Source of the DNA: Amoebophrya sp. A120
Lineage: Eukaryota; Protista; Dinoflagellata
DNA length: 64,000 bases
Direction: 5' to 3'
Assembly: GCA_905178155.1 (NCBI GenBank)
Contig: CAJINV010000001.1
Coordinates: 12,383,832-12,447,831, forward strand
Both the position numbers and the translations under genes were made by a program. The notes below the pieces were generated by a model. That model ran no database searches. It was not told where the DNA came from and was given only the letters and a program-made list of their open reading frames with translations. Shown here piece by piece: positions 3,801-64,000 of the stretch (position 1 is its first letter; every line of letters begins with the position of its first letter).

Positions 3801-6800
3801 ACTACGCCTCGGACAGCGGATGCGGTGCGCCGCCCTTGACGCTGATTGTCACGCAGTCGCCAACACTTTCTCGGGACATCCGCAACAAAGAGTATCCGAA
3901 GATGCGCGAACGGGTTTTGCGCGCGCTAAAAAAACGCGACAAGGAAACTCCAATAGCGGAGAAGGTGGAGCACAGCATCAGTGTGGCAGCCGGCGCGCTC
4001 CCGCAATGCCTCGATGATGTTGAGGGTGTTGGCACTTTTCCGGTTTCATTTGTGGAATTTTTACGCGTGTTCGATCGATCTATTGGTGATGGAGACTACT
4101 TTTTTGAGGACCAGGTAGACGTCCAGACAGGAACAGGACGAGAAAAGGAGGAAAGCTCGTCTACTACTGGCGGGTCGATACTCTACCTCATGGATCGGCT
4201 GCAGATCGGGAAGAGCCCAGCGGGGACCGCAGGGATAAAGCGCATACAGCAGATAGCGCCCAATCATTCCGGCGAGACCAAAAAGCGGCATCACTTAGGC
4301 CGAGAGGTCACATACCATAGATTCAAAACCCTCTATTGGGAGCGATTTCTCAATATCGAAAGGAAAAATCCCCCCTCCCCATATCGAAACGGCATGACTC
4401 CGAAAATTTGTGTTGCTGATTTGAGGCCACAAATCACGTCTGTCTTGCAAGAAGACACGCGCAGAGGCTTCCGCGCCATTATGGAAGCGATTTGGCATGC
4501 TGTAGGACCTAGGGGACAGCCGTTACCGTTTGTAATGCGAAACAACTAGACCGAAACGCCCCCACCTAGGCTGAGGATCTGGCTACGATGCTTTACTGCG
4601 TGACAGCGCGCATTTGTGTACGGAAATCCAGCATCAGAAACTTCGTCTCGATATGGGGAGGGGGGATTTTTCCTTACGATACTCAAACCAGCTGCTGCCG
4701 GCGGCTTTTCGGACGATTATGCAGTGTACCGAGAAATCTTGGCTATCAAAGCAGGGCGACGGCGGCACGAGGTAGAAACAACTTCGGCAACTGCAGCTCA
4801 TGTTACACCCGTTTCAAAAAGACCAGGACTAGCACTCTCTCTTGTTTCTGTTTGCCTTTATTTTAGCTTCTAAGTACCACTTTCCTTTCCCTCTGATTGA
4901 TTGTTCGATGTTTTGTTTCCAAATTCCACAACACAGGACCACACGAGAGCCGACGTGCTTGAGCCGCAGAGTTTCGAGCCTCTTAGCGAAAAAGAGTATG
5001 TGGAGGGCAATCAGCTGCTAGAGTCCTCCAAAACCCTCTCTAAACACGACCGTGCGACTATTTACAAGCTGTACAGGATTTACCAGACCCAGTTGCAAAC
5101 ACCCCGAACCCGCGTGGACGAACACAGCAACTCCCCCGAGCAGCTCGACAAAGAAAAGGATACCGAGTGGGACATTGCCGACTGCGTGAACGATATCTAT
5201 TGGCGGTGGAAGAGAAAGAAGCGCGCTAGTGGCGGCGTCGGCTTCCACGGGCGCCAGGTCACCGCGATGTGCGTCGACGAGGCCCAGGATCTGCTCAGTC
5301 GGCAAATCCGGCTTTTTACCTGTTTAGCAACCTCACTGGGCGCTTTTTCTATTGCCGCCGACACCGCCCAGGCGATCGAGCACGGCCGCAGCTTCTCCTT
5401 TGCCGCACTGAAAGACGAAATTCTGGGGTACTGCGCCACAGGGGGAAGTCCAAGTGACCAGCTGCAACAGCTCGACCTCCACCAGAAGAACATCCACGAT
5501 TTGAGCGAAAATTTTCGCTCGCATCAGGGACTTCTGAACTTCATGGCAGCGCTCGTGCGCCCAGTGGTCGAACTCTTCCTATCAAATGCAAATATGTCTG
5601 GGTCTGGAAGAGTGGGAGGTTTGTCATGCATCTCGTGGATCACAACGATGCTCTGGAATGCAACCAGAAGCATCACAAATTTTGCAAGAGCATCCTAATG
5701 CCAATTAGGGATGAGAAGCCTGCCTTTTGTTTGGCGAGAAATGGGTAACTTTCGCGGTTCATGCAACACAGATTTTTTCACGATTGAGATTTAGCATGCC
5801 AAGTTTGGACTCTTCCAGACCCAGACATATTTGCTATGCATACTTCCCTGACACCGATGATTTGCCGCGTGAGTGGTCCAAGAAAACAGGAACAGCCCCG
5901 ACGATGGTGGTGGGTGCGCCGCCGGATCAGTTGCTGGATATTTTGGCTCCGAGGACCAATTTGCCGCTTCGCCTCACGACGGACCACATGGTCATCGTGC
6001 CGAATGAAGCGCAGCGGCTGCTCGCTGCACAGTACTTCGAAGGCGAAATTTACACCGTCCGCGAGTGCAAGGGGCTCGGCCGCAAGGACGTGCTTTTGTG
6101 GAACTGTGTGCGGCACGACGCATCGCAGCCCGACGATGCAAAAGCGTACGACCGTCTCTGGCCCGACGTTCTGGACTTTGTCCGCCGGAGGTTGCAGGAC
6201 TTTGCGGCCCAAGGCGACGGACGGGAAGTGGCTTTTGACAGCACGCGCAGCAAGAATCCCCTTGGACTCGACGCGGACCGGTCGCTGTTCGCCATTAAGC
6301 TGAAAGGGTTGTACACGGGGGCAGCGCGCCCCAAGCAATCCTTGCTGATCTACGAGTCGGAGGCGAGTGTCGGCTCCGAAACGCTCCGGGAATACTTTTT
6401 GAAGCTCTTTCCCGAGTACGACAAACAGCGGCGGCGCTTCGAGCAGACGGCTCACCCGAACCAAGAGTCCGATCGGGGGAAGCCCATTCTGTACTACTAC
6501 GACGAAGCCCGTGCATCGTTGCTGCGGCAGCACTACGCCGGGTTTTCCTTTGACCACAGCTGGACCCGGGAGATCGACGCGATGCAGCGCCAGATCTACG
6601 ATTTGGAGTGTCAGGGTAAGTACCTGGAAGCGCTCCTACTCACCCGCGAGAGAAGCTCACAGGGGTTTGACGGCTTTATTGACAGTAGCACCAACACGCA
6701 CCGCGGGCGCCCTCCGAGCGGAATGTATGCGGTCGCAGGTACGGCCGCGCAAGACGTTGCGCAAAGGTGCGCGTGGAGCGCCAAATTTCGCGACACCGAG

Positions 6801-9800
6801 CAGCTCCTGTCGAAGCAGGTGCGCGAGTTCAGTTTCTTCGACGATAAGCGCGTATTGTGTCTTCAGGCAGGCGCGGATGCACAGAAGGCGATAGAGTTGC
6901 TAAAGCCGCTGGGAGTCGGTGTGAAGGACCTGAATGAGGAAGACAAACTGCTTCCGCTACACAAGGCAGCCGTGGCAGACTACCGGCAGGCACTGAACTT
7001 TGTCGCCAAGACCGATCCGTGGAAAGCGACCGAGATCAACGAAAAGATCCTCGGCGCCGCCCTTGCCGGATCCGACTTCCTCAGTGCGTGCTTTGGGCAG
7101 CACCTCAACGCCGCCAGATTTGCCCTGCAGGAGCTGCGCAGATTCTCGTTTTCGAAAGAGCAGATGCCGAAACTTGAGGGAGCCGTGCTGCCACTAGTTG
7201 CGAGCGCGCAGAGGTACTTAACCACTTCTACACATCTTTCATGAGAATAAGTAGAGCTGTTTTTATGTCTTTTTTAAATTTAAAACGTGATGAAGAACGA
7301 CTGCTTTGAAAATGCACAATAACACTCTACTAAAAGCATCAATCTTTCCTACCCAGGCACTTCCAGCTTGCAGCGGAGCCTCTCGAATCGGACGAAGCGG
7401 AGCAATGCCTGTGGAGCGCCTGTTCCGAGCGAGAGTTTACGGAGCTTCGGCCCGCGGAAACAAAACAGATTCTGCAGCAGAACCTCGCGACGCTCCGGCG
7501 AAAAGTTAACCCCAAAAACGCGCCAACCGTGCAGATCGCGGGCCTGTGCATTCAGTTTCGACTGTGGGAGGACGCGTTCGTGACCATCGAGCGGGCCGCA
7601 GAGCAACGGGGAAAGAAATCGAAGCGAAAGAAGCCGAAAGATCCGGAGGCCGAGGAGCACCGAAAGCGGGCGATAGAAAGTTTGATCCGACAGTGCAAAG
7701 ACAGCCACTCTGCTTTCTACTGGGAGATGTTTTTGGAAGATGAACCGCAGCGAGCCGCACGCCGCCTGCAACAGTTGCCCATCGGCAGCGCGGAGACGCC
7801 GAAAGAGCACCTTGTGGAGGGACTTCGAAAATTGACCGGCCTCGGCAGCGGGAACGACGAAAGCACGCGCATCGCTACTGCGGAACGCAGTGCGCGCTAC
7901 TTTTTCGTGGCGGCCCGAACCGCAAACTGCAGTGCTGCCGATCGGCAACCTGCGTTGCGCGTCGCGTGCGGGTTGCTGAATCACGCGTGGAAACTGAGAC
8001 TCACCGAGAAGAGGAAAGACAGCGCGAGCACAGAGCCGATTACGCAAACGCTCGGTTGGTACAAAAGCGGCTTGCTCTACCTCGCCGCGCTCGCCAGTTT
8101 GTACTGCACAGACATGCAGCAGAAGCTCGGATCCCCGGCCGACGAGAGCGCGTTTGAAAAGGCCTTGGCGGCGTACAAGGAGGAGTGTGCCAAGTTGCAG
8201 GCGATGAAATGCAACGACGCGGGGCAGAAGCTCCAAGAGGAAGAGAAGCAAAAACTAAAAGATCTGAAGTTCGAACACAACGCGGAAATGATACGCTTTG
8301 GGTTTCGAGAGAACGACTTGATGAAAGAGATGGAAAAACAAGCGGATACGCAGATGCTGCGCAGATTCCAGATCACAAAGTTCAAGCCGCTGCTGTATCG
8401 GTTTGTCGCCAAAATGGTTGTAGAAAGTGAGAAAACTGACGGCTGCTACTTCCTATGTCCTTGTTGCCAGACCAAGGAAATTGGAAGATTCATCACGTAC
8501 GAGGAATGCCACGCGAAATGGTATCTCGAGCGTGCAAGGAAGAAACAACACGAAGTGTTTCATGATTGCGTCGAGGAGGCAGACTTTGAAAACGGGGAGT
8601 GGTGCACAGAATTGGAACGACTTGAGAAACCGCTGTTAGCGCTTGCGCTGTCCTCCATGGAGAGTGAGCTACTAAAGGCCGCGGGACTAGTGAAGGAAAA
8701 GAACGCCGAGCTGGAAGACCTCGACGAAAAAGCTAAACACTTAGACGAAATATTTCTGGCCAACGTGAAATTCCCGCTGCTGGATCCGAGTACTCCGCAA
8801 CTCGGAATAGACGTCGCCCGGGCGAAAGAGTGCTTGAAAAAGCGCATGGCCAGCGTGCAGAAAAAGGTAAACAAGACCGATGGCCAATTACGCAACAAAA
8901 CCAAGATGATCACACCGCAGAGCCTAATTGATGGTCCAACGCCCCTCGTTTACGAGTGTCTCCATCTGCGATTTACCGAAGAAAAACACCAAGATGACTA
9001 CGACGTACTGGAATTCTTTCAAGAGCTGTGGCAGGACCACGACGAACCTCTGGAATTGGTGATCAAGGCAGAACGAAAGAAGCACGTCAACAGCCTCAAT
9101 CTTGCGCGTGACCAGCTGCTGCAAAAAGTTGCTCACCGGAAAGCGGACGCGCTCCAAGAATGGGAAAATGACGTCGGAGTGGACTTCTGGAGTGTGTCGT
9201 ACCATGAGGATCAACCCTACTGGGCGTTGGTGACTTTGTGTAACCGACGTCTGCGGCATGTGTGGAAGCCTTTGGTTCCTGGAAGTAAAATCGGGAATAA
9301 AACGTCGAATAGCGGCAAACAAAGGCAGTACAGAAAGCCACCAGGAGCAGCCGCTGCGTCCACCTCTACAACTGCAGATAATCTTGCGGCGGCCGCGGCG
9401 GAAGTCGCACAACAGGAACAGCTGCTCTTTCCCATGATCGATGCGTTTCTCCGATCATTTTCTCAGCTGCAGCAACCAAAAGCTAAACATAAAGCGAAAT
9501 CGGAACAGCGACCCATTGAGAGGCCCGGTGATGTTGACCCGCGCTCGACGCCCCAGACGGCGAGACTCATCGCCCACATTGGCGCGCCGGACGATTTCGA
9601 GCTCGTCTTAACGGACCCGAGCGAAGCCGTTTGGCTCCACCACGAGATTATCATGGCGGAGGCCGAACACGCAAGGATCGCGGAGAAATTCACCGACGGC
9701 CGAAAGCAACTGCAGGACGACAAACAGCGACTGCAGCTGAAACAAGAGCTTGTGATCTCGATGCAAGAGACCAAAATCCGAGAAGCGAAAAAACAGATCG

Positions 9801-11880: not shown

Positions 11881-11954
11881 TTTTCGCTCTATGGTGTAGG
11901 TAGAAGGCAGGTAGGTTTACTCAATGATGGAGTTCCTATTGTTCATGTCGGTTG

Positions 11955-14900
11955 CTATTTTTCGTCAGTATTTTGGAGCCGCTCAGTAGGATTTGTGTTT
12001 GTACCAGACTTTTTCCATTTTAGTTTTTCAAGCAATACCGAAACCGAGTCATCACACATGTACCGGGAATAATTTCTCCCAAACGCTAACACCCGGCAGA
12101 TTGCCGCAAAGGCCAACAAGGCCACTAGGGAGTTCGCAATGTGATCCGTCTCCGTGACATCAATGCCGAAATTGCTCTTCAGCACCTCTTCCCCCGTTTT
12201 GTATTGGCAGTCGTCTGGGTAGAGAACAAACTCCTCGGTGGAGCATGTGTCCAGTTTTACGTCGGTCCAAGCCCAGACAATCATCGCGTTAAAACCCCAG
12301 TAGGCCAATGACAGGTATTTCACCCACCGCATCCATACGGGCAGTAAATCCAAATCCAGCATAAACCCGTTCAGCAGCAGCATCGGGAGTAGTATCATGA
12401 GTAGTATCGCAGTCGCGATGTCCGGGTCGTCGGTCTATGGATTGTAAAAATGTCTGGGTCTGGAAGAATGGAAGGTCTGTCATGCTCTGCCAGCATGACC
12501 CCAAAGTCTGTCATGCACGTTACCCAAGAGCCTCGCTTTTTTGTCATGCAGAAAAGCAGTTTGTCATGCAGACCAGGCAACACCTCGAAGCTCACAAACT
12601 TGTCATGCTGAGCCAGCACTTGTCGCCGCCTCATGATACGCCAACCAGCATCACAAGTTTCCAGACCCAGACATTTTTACACTTGATACGGTCAGAGAGG
12701 CGACGAACGCCCCGGCCGCGTTCGCCGTCAGCATGACACATTCAGAAATCAGCAAAAAGACGAAAAACTTCTCGAAGAAGAACCCGGCCGTCACGTCGTC
12801 GTCGACGCCGAAGATGCCGTGGAACTGCACGAGAAAGCACGCGGCGATCGTGAAGAGTAACGGAAACAAAGAGGAGATCGGCAACTCCCCTGTCATGCGG
12901 CCCACCGAGAACGCGCTCAGACTGTATAGCCGCTTCGTCACAATTTCGCGCCGGAGAAACCGCGCGCCCTGGACCAGCATCGTCATGGTCTCGAACGCGG
13001 CGGAAAAATTCGGGTGCACGAAGAAGAAAAACGCCGCGCCGTGTCGCGTGTTGTTCATCTTTGGGTGCGGCGGGGTGCGGAAAAAAATCCACCCGCAAAG
13101 TGCCAGCAGCGCCCCGTTCGCGTACAAGGCTAACCACGTCTCGAACCTGCGTCGCAGGCGTGCCCGGTACGTCCGCTGGTGCAAGGCTCTCACCTGGGTC
13201 CACCAAGAGGGGCGGTCTTGCTGGTTGGAAAGAACTACACGGGTTGTAGTAGTGCTAGCGGTCGCATGAACTACGTCTTGCGCGGTCGTTGCGCCAGCTG
13301 CTTGATTCAATGCCTCGTCGTGCGCCACCACGGTATCAAGATCCGGCGGAGGCAGCATCTCCGCGTACTTGGACAAAATGCGCTTACTAATTTGCTTCGG
13401 GTTTTGGTGTTCTCCCACTGGAGGTTCACCCTCCATCGGACCGCTCCTGTCGGCCGCGTTTGTCGCAACTACAGTATCCTCATCTCGTCTGACTTCCTCT
13501 GCGCTGTCCCGTAGTGCAACATTGCTCCCAGATAATTCTCTGTAGGTCAACAGCAGCTTCTCGCGTTTCTCCTCATTCTGGATTAAGTCCAGCGCGAACT
13601 CCGCCGCGTTGTAGCCTCGGGGGAATGCAAACCCCTTGTCCGAAAGCTCGTGAGCCATGGAAAGTCCCGGGCCAAAGTAGCAGCACTCTCCCTTTCCTAT
13701 GAAGTACACTTCGCGGATATTACAATGAAAAATGTCCCCACCCCCGAACTTGAAAGCCTTTGTATTGCAAACCTTTCCAAATGAAACAGTCGCTCTCTTG
13801 CATCTATCAGCATCGCAGATTTCCGATCGTGACTAGCAAAAATTTGTATTGCAAAAGATCCCAGCAAGAGCGGCGTTTGTCATGCAAGCGCGGCGAAACA
13901 CGCCTAGACTCTGCATCAGAAAGATTTGTACTCCTTTCATGCATGACAAAAAGTTTTCATTTGGAAACTTCGCATTACAAATTTTTGCAACTTTGGGGGT
14001 GGGGGCAATTTTCCTCGCGATAGCGGAAGCGGCTGTAGATAAGTGACGACGGCTGGTGGATGGTAAACAGGATGGTTGTTTTTGCATATCATTTGTAAAA
14101 ACGTCCCCACCCCAGAGTTGTGATGCAGATTTGCAATGACAGGCACGTTTGTAATGCGCATCTCCATGAGAGGCGTTTCTAGTCGTGTTTTGGGATTTGT
14201 AATGCTGTAACCAGGATGAGCAAATGCATTTGTGACGCGTTTGTCCTTGCTAGGCTGCACTACACTACGGACTGCAACTTGTGATGCGTGAGCCCCAAAA
14301 CTTCTAGGTTTGTGTTGCAAAATCCCTAGGTTGACTCTGAGATGGGGACGTTTTTACTCAGGATATTGCATTCTGAGAATTCATTGCACTACTGTGCGAA
14401 GAGCTGGCGCCCTGTTGTTCTTCCAAGCCGTCGTCGTACAAGATATCCACCACTTCCCGTGCCATCGTGCTGTCCAGTCCGGACGTTGGTTCGTCGAGCA
14501 AAAGTACGGACACCTTTTCGTGCAAAAGCTCCTCGGCGATCGAGAGCCGCTTACGCTCACCGCCGCTGAGGAACCCGATCCGGCGGTCTCTGCAGTGACT
14601 CAGGCGCAGGCGGTGCAACACAGTCGTGATCTTCTCTTGCTGCTCCGCTTTCGAGAGGCGAAACAGCCGCATTTTCGCATGGAACTCCAACTGCTCCCCC
14701 ACGGTGACCTGGTTTTCGAAAAAATCCTCTTGCTCCACGAGCGAGACCAGCTTGACCTCCTCGGAAAACGGATAGCTTGTCGCAGCAAGTTCCTTCCAGC
14801 TAGTTCCGTTGCAAAACACGGAAATCGTGCCCGAATGTTCCGGAAACTTTTCCGCATTTGGCGTCACCTGGCCGGCGAGCATACGAAGTAGCGTGGTCTT

Positions 14901-16233: not shown

Positions 16234-16291
16234 ACTATCCGAGGGGGTATCATGGTGATCCGCTTAAAACCACGATACCTCCTCGGATAGT
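16234..16291. repeat. Intergenic inverted repeat (23-bp arms, 21/23 matched, 12-nt loop)
   Basis: ACTATCCGAGGGGGTATCATGGT (16234-16256) versus ACCACGATACCTCCTCGGATAGT (16269-16291). Confidence 0.8.
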
Positions 16292-35300: not shown

Positions 35301-38300
35301 CAGCTCTGGCGGTCGGTTCTAACAATCCCCTGCGGACAGACCTCGAGCGTCAGCTGCGATTTCTCCAGCCTGCTTTCGTCGCGCGACCCCTTGCACATCG
35401 AAGAGCGAAAAAGGATGCTGGGCGCCGAGTCGTTGTCTGGTATGGCAGTATCCAAGAATAGCATTCCTTTTTGCACCCCTGTCCGAATTTGGATGGCCGT
35501 CAGCCAGCTCCCGGGCTCGAAATATATGCCGCAGGTGCTCTCGAGGTGTGCCTGGACGCGGGCCATCTGGCCGATCGAAATGCGCCCGCCACCGTCGGAA
35601 AGAATTTGACCTGTTGCAAGTGGAGGCGCCATAGTGAATTGCTATTGGCATGACGACAATGCTGCATTGATATGGCTTACCACAGATCACAAATTAGAAA
35701 GCATGGCCGAAAGGAAATGTCTTGTAATGCAAAGGCCACAAATGAAATCTAAGAAGCTGACTCCCATCCAACTCGTCGCGTGCCGCTCACTATGCATTTG
35801 TTTCTAACCAAAAAGAAGAAAAGTCTGCTAATCTACCAATACCTGTCTTCTTCGCCCGAATGTCGTCTTCGATTGTCCGCTGGGAGGCCGGAACGACGGC
35901 AGTGCGGAATGTTCGAGATGACAACAGCTGAAAGCGCGCCACGAACTTCCCCGGCTTTAGACCGCGAACGTCGGCCGATGACATGGGCATATGCCAGGTC
36001 CGGAGTTTCGTCGCAACTGTACTAGGTTCCTCCCCGCTGAAATACTCGACGAAGATCAGCTTTTTGTTGGCGTCGAACTCGTGGTGGGGGCACAGAAAAA
36101 CGAAGGTCCGGGGACCGCTCCGCAGCTTGCCGCGAGCGTCCTCGCTGGCCGTCGTGGTGAGCAGCTTCACTGTTCGCGGGAACTCGTCGATCCGCCTTGT
36201 GCGCCGAAGCATCGCTTTTACCGCCACACCCCCCGCGGTCGCTCCCTCTTCCTCGTCGGCAGCTCCGCCGTCCCCTGCTCCACCCCCCTCCGCCGCCTCG
36301 CTTGCGCCGGGCTCCGCGTCCTTCTTTGGTCGTATCCGTTGGAAAAACGTCCCCAACCCATTGCGATTCTTCTTCTTATCAGGCAACAGAACTCGGCTTG
36401 TTTTTAGTCTTACGAATACAAACTCAGGCTTAACTTTTCATTCTCAATCGATGGAAGTAAAAGTAGTTCACACGAGCTGACACACGACTCGGCGTCACAT
36501 TTCGCGGCGCTTCAGCGAGCGCTTCTGCGAGGCAGCACTGCCCTGGCCTTCAGTTCGCTTTCCAGCGGCATTTCCCCCAAAACCAGGGGGAATATTTAAA
36601 TTTTAACTCGCCCGCAGGGCGAAAACATGGCGTTTTTGAAAATTTTGCGATAGTTCCCCACCCTCTGGGGCTGTAGAATTTGGCTTTAAACGAGCCGAAA
36701 CCGAGCTCGCGGGCGGCCGCTCACGGCCTCGACTCTCATGTCAGCTCGAGCTTCTGCATCCTTCAGCAAAGGGGCGATGGTGCGCAATAGCATTGCAGCT
36801 GCCAGCAAGTGGCGGGCCTTCGCCCTGCGAGAGCCTCCTCTGAAGCATTTTCACTCTTCTGAGCATTTTTTTCTCTTTCCTTGGGCGGTATCTCCCGCCC
36901 ATTTCTTTTCGCCGAATGTGCGGGCGTGGGAGCTCTGCCCCACGGCTACTTCTAAGCACTTTGCGATGAGAAAACTTCCCACATGACGGATTTTCCGCCG
37001 GCAGCATCTACTTTGATGTGATGTTGCGGCAGGGCAGGGCTCTGGCCAAGATCCTTCCGTCCGAATGCGACTGTGTGTCATGCGCAGCTCTATACTGACG
37101 AGCGCCTTCATTCTAAAAAATGGAGCTTGCAAGCTTGCAAGCAAGTTGTCATGGGGTGGGGGCGTTTTTCCACTGGATAGGTCGGCCCCGCTTTTTCGGA
37201 ACCGCGCGGCCCGGTGGCTTCTTGTTCTTCTGTACCTGGGGGCTCTCTCCGCGGCCTGCGGCCCGCACGTGCTTGGCGCCGCCGTTTTCATCGTAGTATT
37301 CCGGATTTGGCTCCCATACGTATGGCGGCACCCGCACGGTGATCGGCTGCCGTCCCTCCTCCTGGCACTTTTCAAGTAGCCGGGTCCCGAGCGTTGACGG
37401 CCCGCCGCCTCTGCCGCTTCGGTTGTGCCCGTAGTCCAAGACAGAGCCGGCGTATGGAAGGAAAATCTGTGAGCGCGTTTGCTCCTTGAAATTTTGCTTT
37501 TCTCGATGAACGAAAGCGAATCTGAAATCAAAATGAGACAAGCTTAACAAGCCGGCCTTGGTAAGCGCCCACTTTCTTTCAAGAACTACGGCAATGCATG
37601 TACAAACAAAATTATGAAAGTCGTCTTGTTGTTACCCCGACAAAAAAGCGCGACGCGCTTGTTGGACTAGTAATTCTAATTTCAGCAACACAAATAAACT
37701 CCTCCACGTAACAGGCCAAAACGACACTCCCAATGCAAAACGCGCATGAAATAGAGATAGGACTCGCAAGCACTTCCGGCATGACAGTAAAAGTCCTTTC
37801 TTTGCGTAGTCGTTGCAGCTACGTGCACAGTCCACGGTAGCAGGAGCACTCACAGATTGACAGTGCTAATTTGGTTCACGGTACATAACACCACAAAGAT
37901 TTCACCAAGCACTTGCTTTTCCACTATCGGTCTTGGCCGCGATTGCTTCCACTCTGGCCCCTTGCCCGCGTTCTTGCCGTCCCCCCGCGGCCTCTGCTCC
38001 TCTTGTTGGTCGGTCTGTGTCTCCTGCGCCGCGTCTTTGCTGTTGTTCTTCTGCCTCTTTGCCTCGGCTCGGGCTCGTGCGCGCTCGTCTGCCTGTGCGA
38101 GGTCCGGCAACAAGTCCGCCAGCGGGGTGATGTCCGAAGACGCCGATGACTGCTGCGGGGGCATTGAGGACGAAGAGGACTGCGCCCATCCTCTTTGTTG
38201 GCGCGGGTCCGCCCGTGCGTACGCACTCCCCTCCATGGCAACCGGGTCGAACAGCCGGCCAGTGTCGACGTGCGTCGGCACGCAGCGGCGGTCGCCGAAC

Positions 38301-45758: not shown

Positions 45759-47964
45759 TCACAGGTACCCCTCTCGCAGCCAGCGGTGCTTGCAGTGGTT
45801 GCGCATGATGGAAAGCAGCGTGTGCCGCTTCGTGGAGTCGACGACCTGAAACGCGAGCAGCGTACTGGGTGACGACCGGACACTTTGGAGCTTCCTGGAT
45901 ATTACCGAGTCGAAGATCTGGCCGCGCAAGCGACGCTGGCGCGTTAGATCCTTCTCGTCCTCCTCCCCGCTGCCGTCGTTGCAAAGCAGTGCCACGTATG
46001 CACTGCAAATATGATGTCTAGGTCTGGAAGAGTGTCTCTTGCAGGTTTTCCATGACCCTTGAGGTCCGGAATGCGGGACCTAGCATGACAGAGTCTGTGA
46101 GGTCTCTGCCATGCCTATGCTGCATGAGAAACTCCCTCCCAGCTTGGTCGAAAGTGGACAGCTTGTGGCACTCATGCAACACAGAGTTTTGCATGATTCG
46201 GATTTAGCATGACAAGTTGCAATCTTCCAGACCCAGACACTTTTGCAATCCATACCACGCGCACCTCGAAAAAGCAGGGGTTGTCCGGTGCCGGCGGCCG
46301 TGCTGGATATTACAGTGAAAAGTGCCCCCCACCCCTCAAATTGCAAAAATTTGTGATGCGGAGTTTCCAAATGAAAACTTTTTGTCATGCATGAAACGAG
46401 TATGAATCTTTCTGATGCGGAGTCTAGGCGTGTATCGCATCGCTTGCATGACAAGCGCCGCTCTTGCTGGGGTCTTTTGCAATACAAATTTTCGCTATTC
46501 ACGGTTGGAAACCTGTGATGCTGATAGGTGCAAGAGGGCGAATGTTTCATTTGGAAAGGTTTGCAATACAAATGCTTTCAAGTTCGGGGGTGGGGGGATT
46601 TTTCCTTTTGATACTGGATTGGCGTTGTTGCGAGGACTTCTCCCAGTAGCTGTGGTGGACGAAGAATTTGTACTACTTCTCAACTTCGCCCTCTCTTTTT
46701 CCGGCACCCGCACGTCGCAGGAGAGCAGAATTGCATTTCCAACCAAATCGATTGTCGACACGTAATTTCCAAACCGGACCTTCTCCTCCAGTAAGGGCTC
46801 CAGCACAGGCTGGTTTGCACTTTTTTGATCTGCAGAACTGCTCGTTGCTGCTTCCTGTTGAGACGATGAATCTCCGAGATCTAGCTCCACAGTGTACTCT
46901 TCCTCTGTGTCCAAGGTTTTGCACGCGGTTTCATAGAGCTCCCGCAGCGTGCTGCCACAAGCCGCCCAAGGCCCACTGCGCGGATCCAGCGACGCGACAC
47001 TGTTGCCTTCGGAAAGGGAAGCGAGAAAGCTAGCGAATTTCGACACTCGCACCGCTGTGATTGTCGGTTTCGTGGTACAACTACCGGAGCATGCGCTTTT
47101 ACTCGAAATCTCTTGCTGCGGGGGTGAAAGGCGCTGCTTATTTGAAAATCCAGCGAGATGTGACGCAGTGTGTAGTCCTGGCTCACCCTCGCACAGGCTG
47201 CTCGCTTTCTTCAAGCGACCAGACTGCAACCCGTCCTTGTCAGCAACGGTAGGCCCCGCAGAATCAGCATCGTCGACCACGGGGTCGTGTGCCAAGCTGA
47301 AGATCTCTGAGTGAGCATTGTTCGTGAGCAGGACGTAGGCCGGTCGGTGCTCCTTAAACTCTGTCTCGATGAATTCGTCGTAACCATTGCGTAATGGTAA
47401 GTGTTCCACATCATCTAGATCTTCTTCAGCCCCCTCTTCTCGCGGACTCGCCCCATCTTCAGGGTTTGTGCAAAAGGAAGTGGATGCGGACAAGGATCCT
47501 CGGCTGCTGGGCGCCGTGGTTGGCGATAGCGCGCAGTCCGCGAGCTTGCACTGCTCGTCGTGGAGGATGGTCCCGCACGGAAGCATGAATCGCAGGTCCG
47601 TGCCACGCACGTGCAAGTCCTGTCGCAACTCGCCCAACGTGGCGTCCGGCCGCGCCCTGCAGAGAAGTGTTCCTCCCGGAGACACGATGGGGACTGCATC
47701 TACTTCGTAGTTGAGGTGAAACTTATGCTGATCATCCCCGTCGGAGGCCTGATGGAGATCCGGGACATCGTCCAGGGGCTTCGGAATCTCGCGAGCAGTG
47801 CCGGCCCTGCTGGAGGAGGGCTCCCCCTGCGGCACAGTTGCACGGGCGGACAATAGCGCAATGCGGACGGACTCCACGGTTGTCGCGCTTGTAGAGATAA
47901 GGACGAAGAGTTTGAAAACCTTCCGCGCAAGGTAACCGGCATGCTGTTGCCGCAACGCCGCCAT
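45759..47964 (-). CDS. Hypothetical protein with two introners flanking a micro-exon
   Basis: ORF 46495-47964 joins a short exon and ORF 45759-45995 in frame after removing both elements: NANPARPPAPDNPCFFEVRVALLCNDG. Confidence 0.75.
45997..46254. mobile_element. Introner A4 (258 bp)
   Basis: TATGCACTGCAAATATGATGTCTAGGTCTGGAAG ... CTTCCAGACCCAGACACTTTTGCAATCCATA; direct repeat CCACG at 45992-45996 and 46255-46259; interior similar to 57490-57751. Confidence 0.92.
46308..46613. mobile_element. Introner B5 (306 bp)
   Basis: TATTACAGTGAAAAGTGCCCCCCACCCC ... GGGGGTGGGGGGATTTTTCCTTTTGATA; direct repeat CTGGA at 46303-46307 and 46614-46618. Confidence 0.93.
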
Positions 47965-48485: not shown

Positions 48486-50963
48486 TCAAGAACCCTTTCC
48501 GTCTTTGATGCGTTCCGTCAATCGGTCAAGCTTCGCCCGCAGTCCTTTATTCGCGAGGAGCAGCTCGGTGCGGGTTGCCAGCAACGACGTGTCGGCGAGA
48601 CAAGCCGGATCTTCGTCGTCCGTTTCCTCCTGGCGCTTCTCCTCCGCTTCGACACGCTGGCGCTGTAAGTCCAGCGGGAGCTCCGCAAACTCATCCTCGG
48701 TCAACGCAGTGGGGCGATCTGAAAAGCCAGTTTCATCTCTGGTGAGAAAGCAGCAAGCTGCGAGGGAGTGGGAGCTTCGTACACGTACTTACAACAAAAT
48801 TCTTTTCATGGAACAAGCCCAAGAGAAACAAAACTACCAGAAGTTGTATTTCCAGTAACATCAAGATGCCACCGAGACGCAATGAATTATTTGATGTTGA
48901 TGTTCCGTTGTACCTGCCAAGGTTGCAATTTTCAGCGCGGTGTCTCGCAGTCGCTGCTCCTCCTGCTCGGTGGTCTGCCTCTGACTGTCTCGCCGCTTCG
49001 CTTCCTCAATGACCTTCTCGGATTTTTCCAGCATGGGCGCTTCGGCGGAGGCAATCGCCGATTTCGACCTCCTGACCGCCTGCGCAACCAACGCCTTCCC
49101 TTGCTCCGCGCGCTTTGACAGCACGTCCGCAAAATGCGGCGCATCCTGGATGGTCCTGTCGGTTGGAGTTACGTTGGAAGGTGACTTGCGCTCTCGAGGC
49201 GAGGTTTTTTGTTTGCGCGCGGCCGCTTTCGCATCGTCCCCGGGAACTGCTGTTGGTTTTGCTTTTTCACCTTCCGACGCGGCTGTCGGGGGCTGCGCTA
49301 AATTATCCGGTGTCGCGAGTACACTCTGCGACAAACGCTTTGCGAATTCTTCCAACGACAAAGGCTTCTTTCTCTTCACCGCCGGTGCAACTGGATCACG
49401 CCCTTGTGCTTCCATACCGCTGTGAGTTTGCGCTACCTCGTCCTCTCCGCTATCGATTCCGTTTCTGGGCACTCCCGGCAGAGAATCCTCGTCGTCGGAA
49501 GCAGACTCTCCAGTGCCGATTCTAGCATTCGTCCGGTCATCGAACTGTTTCGCAAATTTATCAAACTCGTCGACACTCTCCGACCACCACGCATGGTTCA
49601 ACATCTCCCCGTCAGCAAGATGCTTTTGCGCGACATCAGCACTTGCTCTCTCTCCTGGCTCCTCTTCCGCCCTCGCATGATACGTCTTCGCCAGCTCTTT
49701 CATCTCATTCCCCAGCTCCTGCTTCCGGAAAAACTCCCGCAGCTTCTTCTTGTGAATCAGGTCCTCCTTGTGCAGAACCTGTTTTCCCAGCGCGACCATG
49801 TTCGCAAAAGATGTTGGTGGCTGCTGCTCCCGCTCGCTGAATTCACTCATGCTGCTTTCGGCGCTGTCAAAGGTACGAGTGTTGTCCGCCTGGTCAATAC
49901 TGCTAGTAGAAGTACTAGTTGATATTTTCTCATCCTCCTGCACCCCTTCGGCTCCAGCGAGCGCTCTTTCCAAAATTCGTTGCGCTCGACTCATGTCGTC
50001 ACCGGAATTCTTTGAGGAGAAATGCGCTTCCTGCAAGAAGGAAAATGGTTCATTTTCCCGAACAGACTCTACTCCTTGTGCTTTTCCTTTCCCCGCTGGG
50101 GTTGGGGTAGATTTTTTGGCATTTTCGTCAATGACCTTGAGCAACTTCAAATTTTCCCGTGCGACCTCGCGGTTCTGCTTAGACCAGAAGTCCACCAGCG
50201 CCGTCTGCGGAAGTACATTTTGCTGTGCCGAAGGGCACGTCCGGTACAGCAGCTGTTGGTGACGCAGACCCCAGAAAGCCCGCTGAAAATCCACTGCCGT
50301 GACCCGCTGCTGGTGGTCCACCGCCCCACCTGCTTTCATCTCCTTCAGCAGCTTCTTTTGCCCGGGTGCTGCTCCCGCAGATCCTTTGCCTTTCACTCCC
50401 GTGGCAGTAGTGGCTGTCTTTTCCATCATTCTGGGTTGCAGCAGTGCAGCCTTCCGTCCGTCACGCGCACTGCCGGCGCACAGACGCGAAGCAATTTCGT
50501 CCACCGAGAAGTCCCGCAGCAGCAGTTCTTCCTGACGAGAAGACAATCGCTGTTCATCTTGTTGACCCGTGCTTTCAACTCCGATTTTCCGTAAACGCGC
50601 TACTGTTGCGTCGCGGCATTCCTGCGCTGACATAGACCGCACGCCCTGGTCTTGTCCGTATTCCCCCTGGTTGTAGACGCGGAGCAACAAGGAGCGCATC
50701 CGGGAGGACAGCGATACCTGCTGTTTCTTCGCATTCTTACTATCCCCCCGTTGTACTGACGCGGAAGCCACCGCGTTCCAGAAGGCAGCACCCTCATCGC
50801 GACCGACTTTTGCGTCACTCGCCTCTGCAGCTGCGGGCGAAAAGAGCAGGATCTTCGCGACGGAAAAAAAAGAAAACCAAAACCGGCAAGAACGCCCCAC
50901 CCCCGGCGACCACAATTCTCGCCGAGGGGCGACCATGCCACCCGAAATGGGTCTTTCGCTCAC
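48486..50963 (-). CDS. Hypothetical protein with an N-terminal hydrophobic (signal-like) segment and C-terminal coiled coil; one canonical intron (~48719-48913)
   Basis: The 700-aa ORF joins the 72-aa ORF through GCA G|GTACAA ... TTTTCAG|AT. Confidence 0.65.
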
Positions 50964-51721: not shown

Positions 51722-54700
51722 CTAATATTTTTTTTTCTGCGGCTTTATTTCCCCTGACGCTCGCAGCAGCGATACTTTGTCTTTCTTTCTTCGCTTGAGC
51801 TCCCCTTCGCCGCATCGGTGGCAGTAGTTGCAGGAGTCCGGAAAGTCACAACTTCTTGGCTTCCAGAACCAAGCGCAAGGCGAGCATCCTCTGCCGTGTA
51901 TCTTGTGTAAAAACGTCCCCACACCAGAGTCAAGATGAGGATCTCGCAACACAAATCGAGAAGTTTTGGGGGTCCAGCATGACAAGTTCGTCTAGGTATT
52001 GTAGTGCAGTTTAGCAAGCACAGCAGCAACACAAATCCATCTACTCATCCTGTCGACAGCATTGCAAAGCGCAAAACGTGAATGGAAATGCCTCTCATGT
52101 GTATGCGCATTACAAATCTTCCTGTAGCTGCAAATCTGCATGACAACTCTGGGGTGGGTACATTTTTACTCAGGATACCGTGAAAGATGGAGCCGCTGTT
52201 CATCGGCAGATTCGGCGTGGAAGCTGGCTGCTCCGCCGCTTGGGTCGACCACCCTGGCTCGGAAAAAATGGTGCTCGCAGAGGACGCTCCGGGGACAAAG
52301 CAGAGAGCGGAATCAGACAACTCCGAAGACAATCCACTGTCCTTGCGAGCCATCAGGCAACGATCTGCAGGATCAGCTACGGGTGGAGTGAGGTCCTCGG
52401 CAGGCGGCGCGGCGTCAGGCGCATCTGGTTTCTCCTGTTCGTCCAAGAGCTGCATCAGAAGTTGATGCTGCGTCTTGGGTGTCAGGACACTGCTTTCTGC
52501 GTTTTGAACCTCGGGCCTCCAAGCTTTCCGCTCGATCTCCTCTTTCGAGAGCTTGGTCCAGCACCTGCTACTCGAACTTCCTACTTTAGTGCTAGTTCTC
52601 GTCGTCCCGTCCGGAGGAACCTCTCCATCGCACTCATGCGCCGCACGACAATCATCGGTTTCGTGCGAACGGTTCCAGCCGTGCGTATTGCACCACTTTT
52701 TTTGCTTCTCCAGGAGGGCTGCGTTAAGCACCGCATCGCCGGACTTTGTGACAGGAACCCAAGAATTCCAATCCTTCTCGAAGGACTCGAAGACGGACAG
52801 AGACTGGTCGTCTTTGGTCTTCACAGAGATCAAACCTCTATCCGCATTCGCACCGGCCAAATTTCGTACCTCGGTAGTACCGCTACCACTTCCAGAATTA
52901 ATATCATGTTGCTGCGGGAGCAAGCTTCGACACTGTTTTTTGCTCTGCATCAGAGCGTTGCACGTGCGCAGCTGGTTCTCAAGCATGTACTTGAAGCACA
53001 AAAGGCTCTGTTCCTCATGAAACTTGGCTTGCTGTTGTAGTTGGTCTACTTGCCTCTGTACCTCCTCTGGAGTCGCAGCTCGGAGTCGAACACCATCGGT
53101 CCCGCCGCCGCTATGGTTCGTTATCTGGCTCTGCTCCATGGGAAAAAGCTCCCGTCCATCGTACGTCATCACTAGGTGCGACGAGGCCGGATCGCTCATC
53201 TCCTTTGCGCGCGTTCTGCTGTCTAAGCACGAGAGCTGGTCGTGTGAGGGAACGGCGTGCCCGCAGGCTGCTGGTCCCTGTTCCTTCCTCTCGTGAGTGT
53301 GAGACGTGGTGGGCCGCGCAGTGTTGCAGGTCTTTTTAGTTCCAGTGTCGCTGCCTTCTGCTGGTACGTCCCCAGTATCTGGCTGATTGGCTACTTCCGC
53401 GGCGCGTTTTTGCAGCGAGGCATCTTCCGCGACAGCTAGCTCCTCTTTCATGTCCACGTCTTCTAGCGTTCCGCCTTCCAAAGGCTCCTCAGCACACGTT
53501 GCAGGGAACGTGCTTTGCAGTTCCTGGCCGAGGCCGGTCGCGGTGAGGTCGTACCAGGATTGATGTTGAAATGCACTCGCTGCGAAAGAACTCGCGTTTG
53601 CGAAAGCTGCGCATGAGTTGTTCCACTCGGCTGACAATGGTGCGCCCCAGCCGTTAGGCAGCCAGGCGTTGTTTAGGGCGGCGGCCGCGTATCCAATGCG
53701 CATGCTGTTTTCCAGAACCTCCTGCGCCTGAGCATTCGGAAGGCTGCATTCTGCGGAATTACCTTGCAGAATCCAGGGTTGCATCGCGGCCGCGGCGGCG
53801 AGAAGGTGCGGATCCGAATATGTTGCTGGAGAAGCAGAACTACACGCCAGTTTGTCCTGATCTGGTTGTCCGGACAGGTCATCTGCATTCGCAAAGGAAG
53901 ACGTGCGGGTGCGGCCCCCTTGCCATTCTCCATCATCGTGTTCATCCCACGCTTTGTCCGTGTTTTTCTTCTTGCCGTTCTTGCGACCTTTCCACGTGGA
54001 TTTATGCGCGCCTGGTTCATCCCAATACCGGCCAGAAGTATAAGGAGCACTCCATTCCGCTTGTTCCCACCAGCTGTTTGAGGCGCCGAACGCGCGAGTG
54101 TTATCTGCGTAGTGCGTTTTTGGGTCTATTGCGCAGTGGCTAGCATGCACTCTATGAGAGAGTAGGAAAAGGAATTCAAAAAGGAGAATGTACTTCTTAA
54201 GTAGGCACAATAAACGCGACTTTGCGCTTCCTCGGTAACCAAAGCATGGTCGAAAAGTATCCGAAACAAACGGACCTAAAAATACCTTGCGCGACATTGA
54301 CATTCTGAGTCTTATCTTTCACTGGTACTTGTTTCGGTTTGCTTTTTTGTTTTTCCTTTTCCTCTTCCCGCGCCCACATTGCGTCCCAACTTAACTGCGC
54401 ATCGCTCGCAGTCCATGCTGGTTCAGCCCCGGTCAATCTTGGTGCTGCTGGAGCTGGTTTAAGAAAACTATTGTTTGCGCCCTTCGCTTTTTGATATGCC
54501 TGCTGCTCTCGTCTCATCTTATCTTTCTGCGATCTCAGAAGAGGATTTAAAATTGGTGCCGTCTTCTTTCCAACTCCGTCGTGCCTTCTAGAAGCCCGCC
54601 CTGTTATTGCGGCCGGCCCACTTTTTACGCGTTTCACGGCGTCGCGGTGAGCATCAGAATCTGATCCCGTTGCCGCCTCTTCCTTCCCCGAGCTTAGGCC

Positions 54701-56370: not shown

Positions 56371-58235
56371 TTACGGAAAGTCGTCGTCGCCGAAAACCAT
56401 TTCGTCCTCAGATTCGCTCTCCTGGTCCGGGATCAGGTGTTTTTCGTGCAGAAACTTGTTGGCATGCTGAATGACGTAGTCGCGCATTTTCAAGGCGAAA
56501 ACACCCTTTTCCCCGTCGTTCTTGACGCAGATCTGTGCGTACAGGTCCGTGCTGTCCTCGCGAATCGCTTGTGACGACGCACTGCACATCTTCAGGATGT
56601 ACTCAAGCCTGAGATGAAAAGTTTCGGTCCATTAAACATTGACTCTTGCCATGATATTCTCAACATGAAACTAACTTGAATAATCCCATTCCGGCAACTA
56701 CGGGAGTCTGGTTGTACAATCCTTTAATAGTAAAAAAATGCCTACCAGTCTTTTGCGCTGCACGCGACATGCTCCTCCTGGGGAACGTAGGTGACGATGC
56801 ACAAGTTGTTGTCGTCTGCCATCGACATGACGGTCTTGCCAATCTTGCCAGAGCCACCCTTGCGTTCTTCCTCGCTCGGGTCGGACTTAGCATTCATCGC
56901 CTTCACACTTTCGACCTGGACAAGAGTTTTTTCGTGTCACGCAAACAAAAATGGTCTTCATCTTCCACCCTTCGTCACACCATGCGCAAATATCCTTCCA
57001 AAAACTGAAAAGGCCAACTTGTCCCGAACTCTACTTTGCTCGGTGGAAACACGTTATATATTGGACTTTCATAAGTACCAGCATATCCAAATCTCCAGCG
57101 GGCTCGAGGACTTTTGTGCAGAAGTACTTCAAGCCACCCATATCCGCGGCTCCTTCGATCTCGACACCGCGCTTGCCTGTGGTAGGAAAAGGCACTTGAA
57201 AAAATGATTACGAGCTTTGAATTTATCGAGAGTGAGATCATGAGAAGTAAAAAAAAGGTTGGGGAAAAAATGTCCTCCGTCGCGAGGACAAATGCAGTAT
57301 CCGGTGGTACTAGCAGGCCTCGGAGCTGTGCCTGCGTACCATAGTGTACTCATTTCTGATACCAACTACTTATCATCTTCTCATCGGGTGATTCATCAAT
57401 TAATCCTTCTTACCTCCCTCCTTGAGGACTTTCTTCATCTTCTTTTCGAGCTTGTCGGTAGTCAAGCGCTCCGGACAGGCTGGTGGTTCTATCAAATGTA
57501 AAAATGTCTGGGTCTGGAAGAATGCAAGATTTGTGATGCAGGTTTTCCATGACCCATGAGGTCTGGAATGCGAGACCCAGCATGACAGATTCTTTGAGGT
57601 CTCTATCATGCCTTTGCTGCATCAGAAACTCCCTCTCAACTTGGTCAAAAGGGGACAGCTTTTGGCACTCATGCAAGACAGATTTCTGCATGATTCGGAT
57701 TTAGCATGACAAGTTGCAATCTTCCAGACCCAGACATTTTTGCATTTTATAGGTTCGATGGTCTTACCAGTCTTTTTCGGGGCCACGTAGTCTGGGTTGC
57801 GCTTCACGGACAAAAGCAAATGCGGGCGCTTGCCGTAGTCCAGTTGTGTGTAGGCCGTCTCGACTTTGGTCAGGGAGGCAACCTGAATTGTTTTTCATTC
57901 AATGTCGATCTGGGTTTTGGCGCTTCTAACGCAAAAAGAAAACTAGTGATCAACACATTTGATATTTTTTCAAATTCATATGCAGCTGTGATCGGAGAAC
58001 TACTACAAACCTTGTTCTTCTCGAGAAGGCCGACCACAGTTGCGGCGGCCGGGATAGCAGCACCGAGAGCGGAGATGACAACTTCATCGAAGATTTTTTT
58101 CTCTACTCCGTCCTTCCCCGTAATCCCCTGAAGGAAGTTCGTGGCTGCGCGCACATAGAACGAGGCGTTGTGTGCCTTGGAGATCCGGACCACATTGTCG
58201 GTCTTCTCGGTCTGCTTTTTCGTTTCGGTCGTCAT
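56371..58235 (-). CDS. Alba-domain protein fused to an uncharacterised domain. Exons ~58235-58011, 57882-57752, 57484-57414, 57176-57079, 56915-56746, 56608-56371
   Basis: Alba: VRISKAHNASFYV...EVVISALGAAIPAAATVVGLLEKNKVASLTKVETAY. Four phase-compatible GT-AG introns plus one introner give KKVLKEGGKRGVEIEGAADMGGLKYFCT...AMNAKSDPSEEERKGGSGKIGK...EMVFGDDDFP. Confidence 0.82.
57490..57751. mobile_element. Introner A5 (262 bp)
   Basis: TATCAAATGTAAAAATGTCTGGGTCTGGAAG ... CTTCCAGACCCAGACATTTTTGCATTTTATA; direct repeat GGTTC at 57485-57489 and 57752-57756; restores KTIEPPACPE. Confidence 0.93.
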
Positions 58236-61977: not shown

Positions 61978-62027
61978 GATCTGGTTTTCGTTTGGATCTG
62001 GTTTTCGTTTGGATCTGGTTTTCGTTT
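61978..62027. repeat. Tandem repeat of GATCTGGTTTTCGTTTG, three copies
   Basis: Three consecutive 17-nt units, the last lacking its final G. Confidence 0.9.
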
Positions 62028-62329
62028 CTGCCGTGTTGAAGCGCACGGCTTGTGTTTGATCAAACCAATTTTTTCCTAACGTGTAAAGATCCGCTTTCTC
62101 TTCTTTTGATCCTTTTTGAAATCGCAAAGCAAATTCTGATCGTGTTCGCGTCTAGATAGGAGAACAGAGAACGCGCCGTCTGCTTCTAGACGAGAGTGAG
62201 CTACGTAGCCTCGGCCGGTCGATCAAAGTGGTTGTGCCTACTGCTGATACATAGATAAGTACATGCGTGCGTGGTAAACTTCAGGAGGCTGGTGCCAACA
62301 CTTCTTCACAGTTGGTCGGCAGCTACCTC

Positions 62330-64000
62330 TCATGTCCTTTCAAACTGTGGGCAGTTCCCGCGCGGCTGGAAGTGCGCCGTGACAGGCTTGCACGAAATTT
62401 GCCGGCGACAGTACAAGCAGGAGTGCTGTCTGCAGTAGGGACAGCGCAGGTGGTTGTTCACATGATTGGGGTTGTCAAGCCACCGAACCACCACCACGCG
62501 ACAGACGGCGCACCGCACGCGTTCGTACAAGTTCTGGTCCACGTACTGTGCCCCGTCCTGCAGGGCGCGCTGGAGCCCGGCCTGCCCGAGCCGCGCCACC
62601 TCCTCGTTCCACTGTCGGATCGCGTCCTGGTCGAACAGGACGCAGGATTTTGGGTTGTCGGAGCGAAAGTGGTCGTAGCTGTCAATCACCTATCAAGTGC
62701 AAAAGTGTCTGGGTCTGGAACAGTCATGCTGCTTTTGCATGACACAGAAGGCCTGCCATGGAAGCTCTAGCATCACAGGTTTCGAGAAGCTTCTGCAATG
62801 CCGAATCTGCATGACAAGTGCCCCACTCTGGTGACAGAAAGTGGCCAGCTCGAGCTCTTGCTGCCTGTGCATGAGAGATTTTTATGGGTTGTCAAATGCG
62901 CATCACAAGTTTGCATTCTTCCAAACCCAGACATTTTTGCATTTGATATCACCTTCAGACACTGCCAGCAGAACACCGTGCGGCAGTTCTCGCACTTCAT
63001 CTTGTTGCACCCGGAGATCTTCTGGATCGCGAAGCTGCAGGTCGGGCACTTCCGGCTGGTCTGGTTGATCAGCATCAGGGACTTCGCCTCCGCGACCCGG
63101 TTCTGCGCGGCCTGGCCCTGGTTGCTCAAGATCTGGGCCCGGCTCGGCGCCACCTCACAGAACGCCCGGTCCGGGTGGTAGACGTCGAGGCACTTGGCGC
63201 AGAATTGCAGCCGACACTTCTCGCACTCGCAGTAGTTGTCCTCCTGGATGATGCACGCTACGGTTTCCGGTTTCGGCTTCTGGTCGGCGCACCGGGGACA
63301 GTACGCAATGTCAGTCATTCCGTCCAGGGCCCGGCTCAGCGTCATGGCTTCAAACTTGTCGAGAAGCGCCTGGTTTATTGCAGCCTCGTCGCAGGATGAG
63401 CTTCTACCACTCTCAACAAGAACATCGAAGGTTGACTCAGTTTCAACATCGCCCAACAAAATTTCCCGTACCAGCGTGGTGTCGAAGGGTTCCGCGTTCG
63501 CGTATCAACTGTAAAAGTGTCTGGGTCTGGAAGAATTCATGTTTGTCATGCTTGTCTGGCATGACTCTTAAATCTGTCATGCACGTTACCCAAGAGCTCC
63601 GCTTTTCTGTGATGCAGAAGCGCAGTTTGTCATGCAGAATAGGCAACACTTAGGAGCTCAGAAACTTGTCATGCTGAGCCAGCATTTGTAGCCTGATCAT
63701 GAGACGCCACCCAGCATCACAGGTTTCCACCAGACCCAGACATTTTTACTTTTGATATCGCGGGCGGGCACACCATGCAGCGAATGTGATCCAGCGCCCC
63801 GTCATTTACGTGGACTTTGACCAGATTGACCAGACATGCGCGGCAACAGCGGTGCGCGCAGCTGGGGAGGGAGAAAAAATCCTTTCCCGCCTTGACGGTA
63901 CAGCAGATCGGACACTCTTGAGGCGTCTGCCGATAAACCGCCTGCTTCTTCCGCTCGTCATTTTCCAGCAACTGGAACGCCAGCCCCTGCGGCAGGTCCA
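62330..64000 (-). CDS. RBR (RING-IBR-RING) E3 ubiquitin ligase, RNF14/Ariadne-like; 5' end outside the window; two introners
   Basis: RING1 CPICC...CAHRCCRAC, IBR YCPRC...CEKCRLQFCAKC...H, RING2 CPTC...KISGCNKMKC..C..FCWQC; junctions restore CPPANAEPFDTT and WQCLKVIDSYDHF. Confidence 0.9.
62691..62948. mobile_element. Introner A6 (258 bp)
   Basis: TATCAAGTGCAAAAGTGTCTGGGTCTGGAA ... TTCCAAACCCAGACATTTTTGCATTTGATA; direct repeat TCACC at 62686-62690 and 62949-62953. Confidence 0.93.
63503..63757. mobile_element. Introner A7 (255 bp)
   Basis: TATCAACTGTAAAAGTGTCTGGGTCTGG ... CCAGACCCAGACATTTTTACTTTTGATA; direct repeat TCGCG at 63498-63502 and 63758-63762. Confidence 0.93.

Follow-up and report, generated by a model that had tools for sequence, protein, structure and literature searches.

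We report that thirteen short elements with inverted ends, located in a 64-kb stretch of Amoebophrya sp. A120 DNA (64,000 nucleotides of contig CAJINV010000001.1; referred to as the window), are retained in the DNA but absent, with single-base precision, from RNA. The elements interrupt seven genes and belong to an already known class, the A120 introners, in the genome from which this class is known, and the finding itself is therefore not new. An earlier note, made from the sequence alone, had taken them for precisely removable, non-GT-AG introns; the observation is real, this first reading is confirmed as correct and the class is one already known in kind. Analysis of imperfect flanking repeats, including copies from a second assembly, provides insight into where such introns are probably cut, and the sequences flanking the element ends into how they might have been inserted.

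Presence in DNA and absence from RNA

The elements, denoted by their first base (full coordinates are given with the host genes), start with TAT, end with ATA and have imperfect inverted ends of approximately 28-30 nt, which are of two types that we named GTCTGG and C-rich. All thirteen that the earlier note had listed were found again with the same borders and the same two types of terminal inverted repeat (TIR), while strict and relaxed de novo scans of the window gave no fourteenth. The motif TAT-N7-AAA is read at 26 of the 26 ends, and in the predicted folds of all thirteen elements 22-29 of the initial 30 bases are paired to the opposite end, forming a hairpin. Perfect 5-bp direct repeats, all different as had been claimed, flank twelve of them (chance ≈1e-35), the exception being 33299-33653 with an imperfect repeat matching at two of five positions. 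Elements 13718 and 46308 are 91% identical, 14087 and 51899 are 76% identical, and many DNA contigs of run X1 pile up on the window elements, i.e. these are repeated in the genome. TIRs, a target site duplication (TSD) of fixed length and the lack of coding capacity together correspond to miniature inverted-repeat transposable elements (MITEs); the only element-free counterpart seen is a distant ABCG paralog. The elements do not have the GT..AG borders of major U2-type introns. That no register within the repeats gives GT..AG holds for twelve of the thirteen and fails at 62691-62948, where the repeat GGTGA (transcript sense) offers one such register; a GT..AG register is expected by chance in approximately 4% of random repeats, and in the register favoured below none of the thirteen has it.

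The comparison with assembled contigs spanned 40 of the 64 kb and ten of the thirteen elements, with 57490, 62691 and 63503 lying outside. The RNA-type runs X3 to X6 are from one study and were used as contigs (X4 and X6 are one sample), and X1 represents DNA contigs. At eight of the ten sites RNA-type contigs lack exactly the element plus 5 nt, as the earlier note had predicted for RNA, and the remaining two (33299 and 36333) are uncovered. Specifically, five contig joints skip 333, 268, 258, 310 and 284 bases, in each case the element plus 5; in one X3 contig, positions 45991 and 46614 are separated by 48 letters, the number predicted for the loss of 45997 and 46308 with 5 nt each, and in a second X3 contig 51893 is joined to 52178 with no letters between, i.e. 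without 51899. None of the listed sequence sets is recorded as RNA; since ordinary GT-AG introns are also missing from X3 and X6, and X6 terminates in poly(A), these two represent spliced RNA, and the loss of both kinds of intron from the same contigs bears out the suggested coexistence with GT-AG splicing. Moreover, the public proteins P0001 and P0002, which are transcript-based models, are without elements 33299 and 57490, respectively. As regards the use of nearby cryptic GT-AG sites, which the earlier note had named as an outcome that would contradict it, an in-frame GT..AG pair adjoining 57490 is unused in P0002.

Deletion of the element plus 5 nt opens the frame at twelve junctions as judged by script, and likewise by eye at 63503, which lies near the window end; the claim that the frame is restored every time thus stands. 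Conversely, a retained element breaks the frame at twelve of the thirteen sites (at 33299, 120 codons stay open) and in 169 of 173 oriented copies outside the window. These counts bear on the idea that the joints are reverse-transcriptase template switches across the hairpin between the short repeats and that the real mRNA retains the elements. A hairpin combined with a direct repeat is a known signature of such artefacts, and all RNA data used here are cDNA. However, besides the broken frames, the assembled contigs have the joined form, and residues conserved across imperfect repeats (see below) point to selection on the joined reading, and we consider template switching the least credible of the explanations weighed here.

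The X1 DNA contigs cross seven element ends unbroken, without branching and at about the depth of the flanks. Absence of the element from an expressed DNA copy, which is characteristic of ciliates, was accordingly not what we found, and excision from the DNA before transcription, in the manner of ciliate internal eliminated sequences, appears very improbable. It would account for ends that resemble transposase substrates and for the scarless removal. Moreover, contigs drop rare forms and could conceal rare empty sites, the joints were judged among those listed, and X1 is possibly the window's own source. Against it stand the bridged ends; in addition, a transposase would not be expected to take, relative to the transcript, a single base beside one element end and four beside the other.

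Two observations concern other RNA sequences. The raw RNA run X9, which has the same species label, covers no gene in the compared stretch, yet 168 of its reads match one element end (46170-46244) and are foreign to the left and right of the match. An abundant RNA of another strain thus seems to retain a portion of an element of this kind. Among the X4 and X5 RNA-type contigs some have element ends joined to the flanks of other loci, representing unspliced copies or library DNA.

Exons in the window are 100% identical to P0001 (an RNA-dependent RNA polymerase) and P0002 (an Alba fusion), both named Amoebophrya sp. A120. According to Farhat et al. 2021 (PMC7789003) the A120 introners have inverted repeats consisting of TAT, seven variable bases and at least three A, 3-5-nt direct repeats and support from RNA sequencing, while their borders were left unknown and U1 small nuclear RNA (snRNA) was not found. 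Gozashti et al. 2025 (PMC12130899) list 58 A120 families, of which most in rows 1-21 are TIR DNA elements of unknown superfamily, as are the families of 252-305 bp. The protein identities, and end motifs matching the definition in PMC7789003, identify the window elements as these introners: the motif is present at 26 of 26 ends, the hairpin is predicted, repeats flank twelve of thirteen, and non-GT-AG removal is seen at eight of ten sites and at two via P0001 and P0002. They share with the published introners (PMC7789003, PMC12130899) the organism, a length of approximately 250-300 nt, the absence of a transposase inside and host genes mixing both intron types, and we find no difference in kind. 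The earlier note had referred to introners reported in Amoebophrya; the match is closer, i.e. the same organism and the same published class (PMC7789003). What is added here is the probable cut after repeat base 4, the orientation-free removal and a one-sided target motif. We found no paper resolving the register, the removal route or the target motif in the non-subscription literature (including the available parts of PMC9860276, PMC11453091 and PMC12787238), although part of this may be contained in figures 3 and S19-S25 of Farhat et al.

Orientation, duplication and probable position of the cut

A scan with the GTCTGG end pattern gave at least 181 loci, and all but one of those listed are from one other assembly. 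Its elements reach 97% identity with window elements among the listed loci, and the proteins closest to one of its genes are from Amoebophrya (55%), which argues that this second assembly represents a relative. The repeats of 157 listed elements (200-520 nt) are perfect in 132 cases, match at four of five positions in 20 and at three in 4, and one element has none. The duplication is 5 bp in 133 of 176 pairings versus 0-17 for other lengths. A coding model gave the gene direction with confidence for 95 of the 157; a relaxed scan included 270 elements. The end pattern had no match in viral contigs.

Removal ignores the orientation of the element. Among 80 assigned copies in the second assembly the two orientations relative to the transcript are at 40:40, and in the window the members of the pairs 13718/46308 and 14087/51899 are oppositely oriented with respect to their transcripts, and removal occurs in all four cases. 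There is also no sequence demand on the duplication: the base composition of the repeats is flat and the same as the exon background, each of the five positions tolerates mismatches, and there is no significant enrichment of GT-AG registers (8 of 81 versus 5.1 in shuffled repeats, p=0.12). In this respect the elements differ from the introners of Polarella and Symbiodinium (bioRxiv 2020.10.14.339549), which likewise are TSD-bearing intron makers of dinoflagellates, some acting in both orientations. Those need G(T/C/A)..AG from the element or the duplication, and their duplication is thereby constrained. The non-canonical introns of Fritillaria borealis are also TIR/TSD-derived and are removed by an adapted spliceosome; they prefer AG-AC and AG-AT ends (PMC11282704), whereas here no end dinucleotide is fixed beyond a predicted U at +2.

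When the repeat is perfect all six registers give the same mRNA. An imperfect repeat gives different proteins in different registers. At 33299, P0001 reads K-N-L-L where three solved fungal homologues have K-D-V-I, and the cut can then follow only base 2, 3 or 4 of the repeat. Three loci of the second assembly, L048, L023 and L058, whose copies break their genes if retained, set lower limits. The base of the upstream repeat gives G at L048, a residue present in 105 of 121 alignable homologues, and the cut thus follows at least one repeat base. At L023 the residue is F, which the two close orthologues share (distant homologues have mostly E), and the cut follows at least three; no A120 orthologue of this gene came up. 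In the Rab gene at L058 the residue is A and not D (among 11 viral Rab homologues, seven have A, two I, one G, one C and none D), and the cut follows at least four. Approximately 25 other imperfect repeats were without usable homologues and were excluded from this argument. If one rule holds for both organisms the four loci agree on repeat base 4. As judged from these sequences, the cut is likely to be at one fixed position, giving an intron N-UAU...AUA-NNNN that would have a GUA-like start with a free first base and no AG at its end.

T at +2 in 9 of 9 predominant A120 and 9 of 9 A25 splice pairs (Farhat et al., Table S4) fits with a cut after base 4, keeping in mind that aligner sliding could add to this signal. 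For comparison, eight of nine donors checked among the ordinary introns of the window start with GTA. Polarising the repeat mismatches by A/T mutation bias was uninformative, as three subfamilies had no such bias, and comparison of the 5' and 3' copies of TAT and AAA involved too few changes to give a signal.

It might instead be that the cut slides within the duplication, using any register or the nearest GT/AG-like one, and that the duplication itself makes removal scarless. Such sliding is easily reconciled with the identical mRNAs from perfect repeats and with borders called variable or unknown in PMC7789003, and the register is fixed by four loci only. Nevertheless, we judge it very improbable given that four imperfect repeats agree on one register, that the GT..AG pair near 57490 is passed over in P0002, and that mismatched repeats are tolerated although 0 of 34 imperfect copies in the second assembly are open when retained. 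Element 33299 is both the sole window element with an imperfect repeat and the sole one with an open frame on retention; the same 34 copies rule out that imperfect repeats are tied to read-through tolerance.

Insertion, removal and their interpretation

The flanks have T at 18 nt in 54% and G at 16 nt in 55% of 264 element ends (p 2e-28 and 6e-19, respectively), as part of a consensus D-T-Y-G-Y positioned 15-19 nt outside one element end and stopping 9 nt short of the near edge of the duplication. Of 170 GTCTGG-type elements, 129 have T and G together on at least one side, compared with 8-29 when twelve shifted positions are examined; only 6 have the pair on the two sides, while 27 would be predicted under independence. 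The side is unrelated to element orientation (25:22 and 16:12) and is not fixed by transcription (28:40). The motif is weaker in other element types (35 of 85); in the window it accompanies seven of the thirteen elements (p 2e-4), six of the seven being GTCTGG-type. RNA pairing of the flank G and C was ruled out as its cause since the motif is one-sided and without covariation, as were neighbouring elements. We read the motif as a choice made at the DNA level by the inserting enzyme. Insertions have a codon-phase bias of 46:31:18, for which such a motif would account with no need for splicing. We did not find one-side targeting at a fixed distance described for a eukaryotic cut-and-paste element.

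As to the kind of transposon, Ginger and Transib elements make duplications of the 5-bp type and have termini TGT..ACA or CAC..GTG; all ends here are TAT..ATA, and identity with either was rejected. One A120 family is listed without Ginger termini in PMC12130899.

On balance we favour that the elements are non-autonomous DNA transposons removed by a relaxed spliceosome whose cut has a constant position determined by the end hairpin. A transposase supplied in trans from elsewhere would insert the element, on either side of which the D-T-Y-G-Y motif may lie, through a cut staggered by 5 bp, at distances of 9 and 14 nt from that motif. In the transcript, the inverted ends would pair and bring the exons together, pairing in the cell being suggested by the folds. 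The 5' cut would fall one base ahead of TAT, creating an N-U-A-U that mimics the GUA start of ordinary introns with the first base free, and the 3' cut four bases past ATA, by position and not at an AG. In both orientations the reverse complement of the end would provide a U-run and a candidate branch A approximately 20-22 nt from the 3' cut. The spliceosome is preferred because the predicted start copies GUA in both strains and because the 3' arm has a U-run after G-A-C; this G-A-C has 1 change in the 3' copy compared with 10 in the 5' copy (p=0.012, positions picked post hoc). A120 has a near-complete spliceosome (PMC7789003).

A more specific proposal has two parts: the splicing route recognises nothing but N-U-A at the 5' end and locates the 3' site, without AG, by a distance of four bases to the hairpin, such that any insertion duplicating 5 bp becomes a perfect intron either way; and the transposase picks a one-sided motif at a fixed 9/14-nt distance, resembling type IIS enzymes. 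We put this combination forward tentatively, with somewhat less than even confidence.

The same elements and the same fixed cut could also be handled independently of the spliceosome, by a structure-guided nuclease and a ligase that cut beside the hairpin and release a circle, as suspected in euglenids. This is the most serious competitor, albeit one that we regard as rather unlikely. It requires no base at +1 or at the 3' end, makes orientation irrelevant and draws on the hairpin common to all thirteen elements; U1 snRNA was, moreover, not found in A120 (PMC7789003). Euglenid nonconventional introns resemble the elements in having inverted ends that pair while exons are joined and in duplication-like repeats, a MITE origin has been proposed for them, and they leave as circles (PMC11282704); circular release has been shown there, while the elements described here are known from contigs only. 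The euglenid introns differ in having a loose pyrimidine|purine junction with pairing from +4. Here the repeat composition is flat, i.e. there are no pyrimidine|purine junctions and any base can stand at the junction, with pairing expected from +2. The probable 5' ends, N-U-A in A120 and U-U-A-R-R in A25 (table and motif in PMC7789003), are both GUA-like and speak for the spliceosome, as does the less changed G-A-C of the 3' copy.

Several points weigh against removal by a spliceosome at a fixed register, and against the transposon origin. The register draws on four loci in two organisms, and on protein conservation and one public gene model instead of reads; its upper limit comes from 33299, whose retention keeps an open frame, and the RNA runs X3 to X6 are a single study seen as contigs. 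Some 5' ends are changed at the predicted +3 A (one) and +4 (two), the constraint at the +2 U (0 changes at the 5' end versus 1 at the 3' end, in 103) involves too few changes to show a requirement, and G is not favoured as first intron base (45 of 139). The proposed branch point is a candidate, and we know of no precedent for a spliceosomal 3' site that lacks a sequence signal. Finally, neither the window nor 574 kb of listed loci yielded a transposase or a long coding copy, and no transposase was found in A120 according to PMC7789003. The earlier proposal of a DNA-transposon family with scarless removal is thus supported in its TIR/TSD anatomy and in the exact loss from RNA; the family itself is only probable, as neither transposase nor full-length copy was encountered.

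The authors who described the class left both the borders and the splicing route open, and a fixed register makes the mechanism directly testable: it tells where lariats or circles should lie and which bases to mutate. It would also correct gene models in a genome with 65% non-canonical introns, and the one-sided motif offers a way to track down the missing transposase. An intron defined by a hairpin, with no demand on exon sequence, would, if true, be a useful scarless insertion tag.

Host genes and neighbouring sequence

On re-reading, the earlier count of seven host genes is right. A helicase-like gene on the plus strand contains 4354..4681 (C-rich ends, repeat CTCAA; predicted intron 4353-4685, target motif 4335-4339) and 5580..5842 (GTCTGG ends, repeat CTTCC; predicted intron 5579-5846), with X6 joints skipping 333 and 268 bases, respectively. 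This first host gene also has an ordinary GT-AG intron at 7214..7356 (+), for which a joint in X6 skips 143 bases, serving as a control that X6 is spliced RNA. On the minus strand an ordinary GT-AG intron at 48719..48913, with a joint skipping 195 bases, is the corresponding control for X3. The statement that the host genes also carry GT-AG introns is correct for e.g. 7214..7356, but not for the ABCG gene, which has no ordinary introns and becomes a single 709-codon frame once its three elements are deleted.

All other elements are on the minus strand. The three in the ABCG gene, all with joints in X4 and X5, are 12436..12688 in the membrane domain (GTCTGG ends; predicted intron 12432-12689, target motif 12703-12707, 258 bases skipped), 13718..14022 directly past the H-loop (C-rich; predicted intron 13714-14023, 310 skipped) and 14087..14365 (C-rich; predicted intron 14083-14366, 284 skipped). 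This gene (12070-15050) is one of two adjacent ABCG paralogs on the minus strand, and the other (approximately 19400-22290) has no element; after deletion the former aligns to it without gaps at both conserved sites, and is colinear with it at 12436.

A QDE-1-like RNA-dependent RNA polymerase gene (32339 to approximately 38500, -) contains 33299..33653 in its catalytic region (imperfect repeat AACCA/AGCTT in transcript sense; target motif 33668-33672), identified through P0001 and solved homologues and uncovered by RNA contigs, and the 847-nt element 36333..37179 at an AT-hook-like RGRP motif (C-rich; no nested element, longest open stretch 108 codons), identified by frame restoration. P0001 begins near 34420; the frame upstream of it, in which the AT-hook-like motif and element 36333 lie, is left out.

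Elements 45997..46254 (GTCTGG ends, with a 3-nt insertion in one end; predicted intron 45993-46255, target motif 45978-45982) and 46308..46613 (C-rich; predicted intron 46304-46614) are missing from the same X3 contig. Element 51899..52177 (C-rich; predicted intron 51895-52178) lies at the start of a Cys/His finger and is bypassed in the X3 contig joining 51893 to 52178. The gene at 56372-58235 (-), with 57490..57751 (GTCTGG ends; target motif 57766-57770; based on P0002), encodes an Alba domain fused to a conserved region without Pfam match that is shared by 19 relatives (269-337 residues). An IBR/RING2 ligase gene (Pfam IBR) contains both 62691..62948 (GTCTGG; target motif 62672-62676), which has the sole possible GT..AG register and is based on frame restoration, and 63503..63757 (GTCTGG; target motif 63772-63776), based on frame and sequence. 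A 33-residue query against solved structures gave a chance match only.

The motif TGTN(A/T)TGC occurs 53 times in 4,261 nt of element and 14 times in the other 59,739 nt; it is present inside all thirteen elements, mostly in one direction per element, and may represent candidate protein-binding repeats. Among the loci L002-L176 of the second assembly there are further types, 108-330 nt long, which share the TAT-N7-AAA ends and the 5-bp repeats and are not seen in the window. A 54-nt inverted repeat at 16236-16289 starts with TAT and ends with ATA, without a direct repeat or A-run, and the region 10700-11900, between two converging genes, is of low complexity and very A/T-rich (approximately 29% GC).

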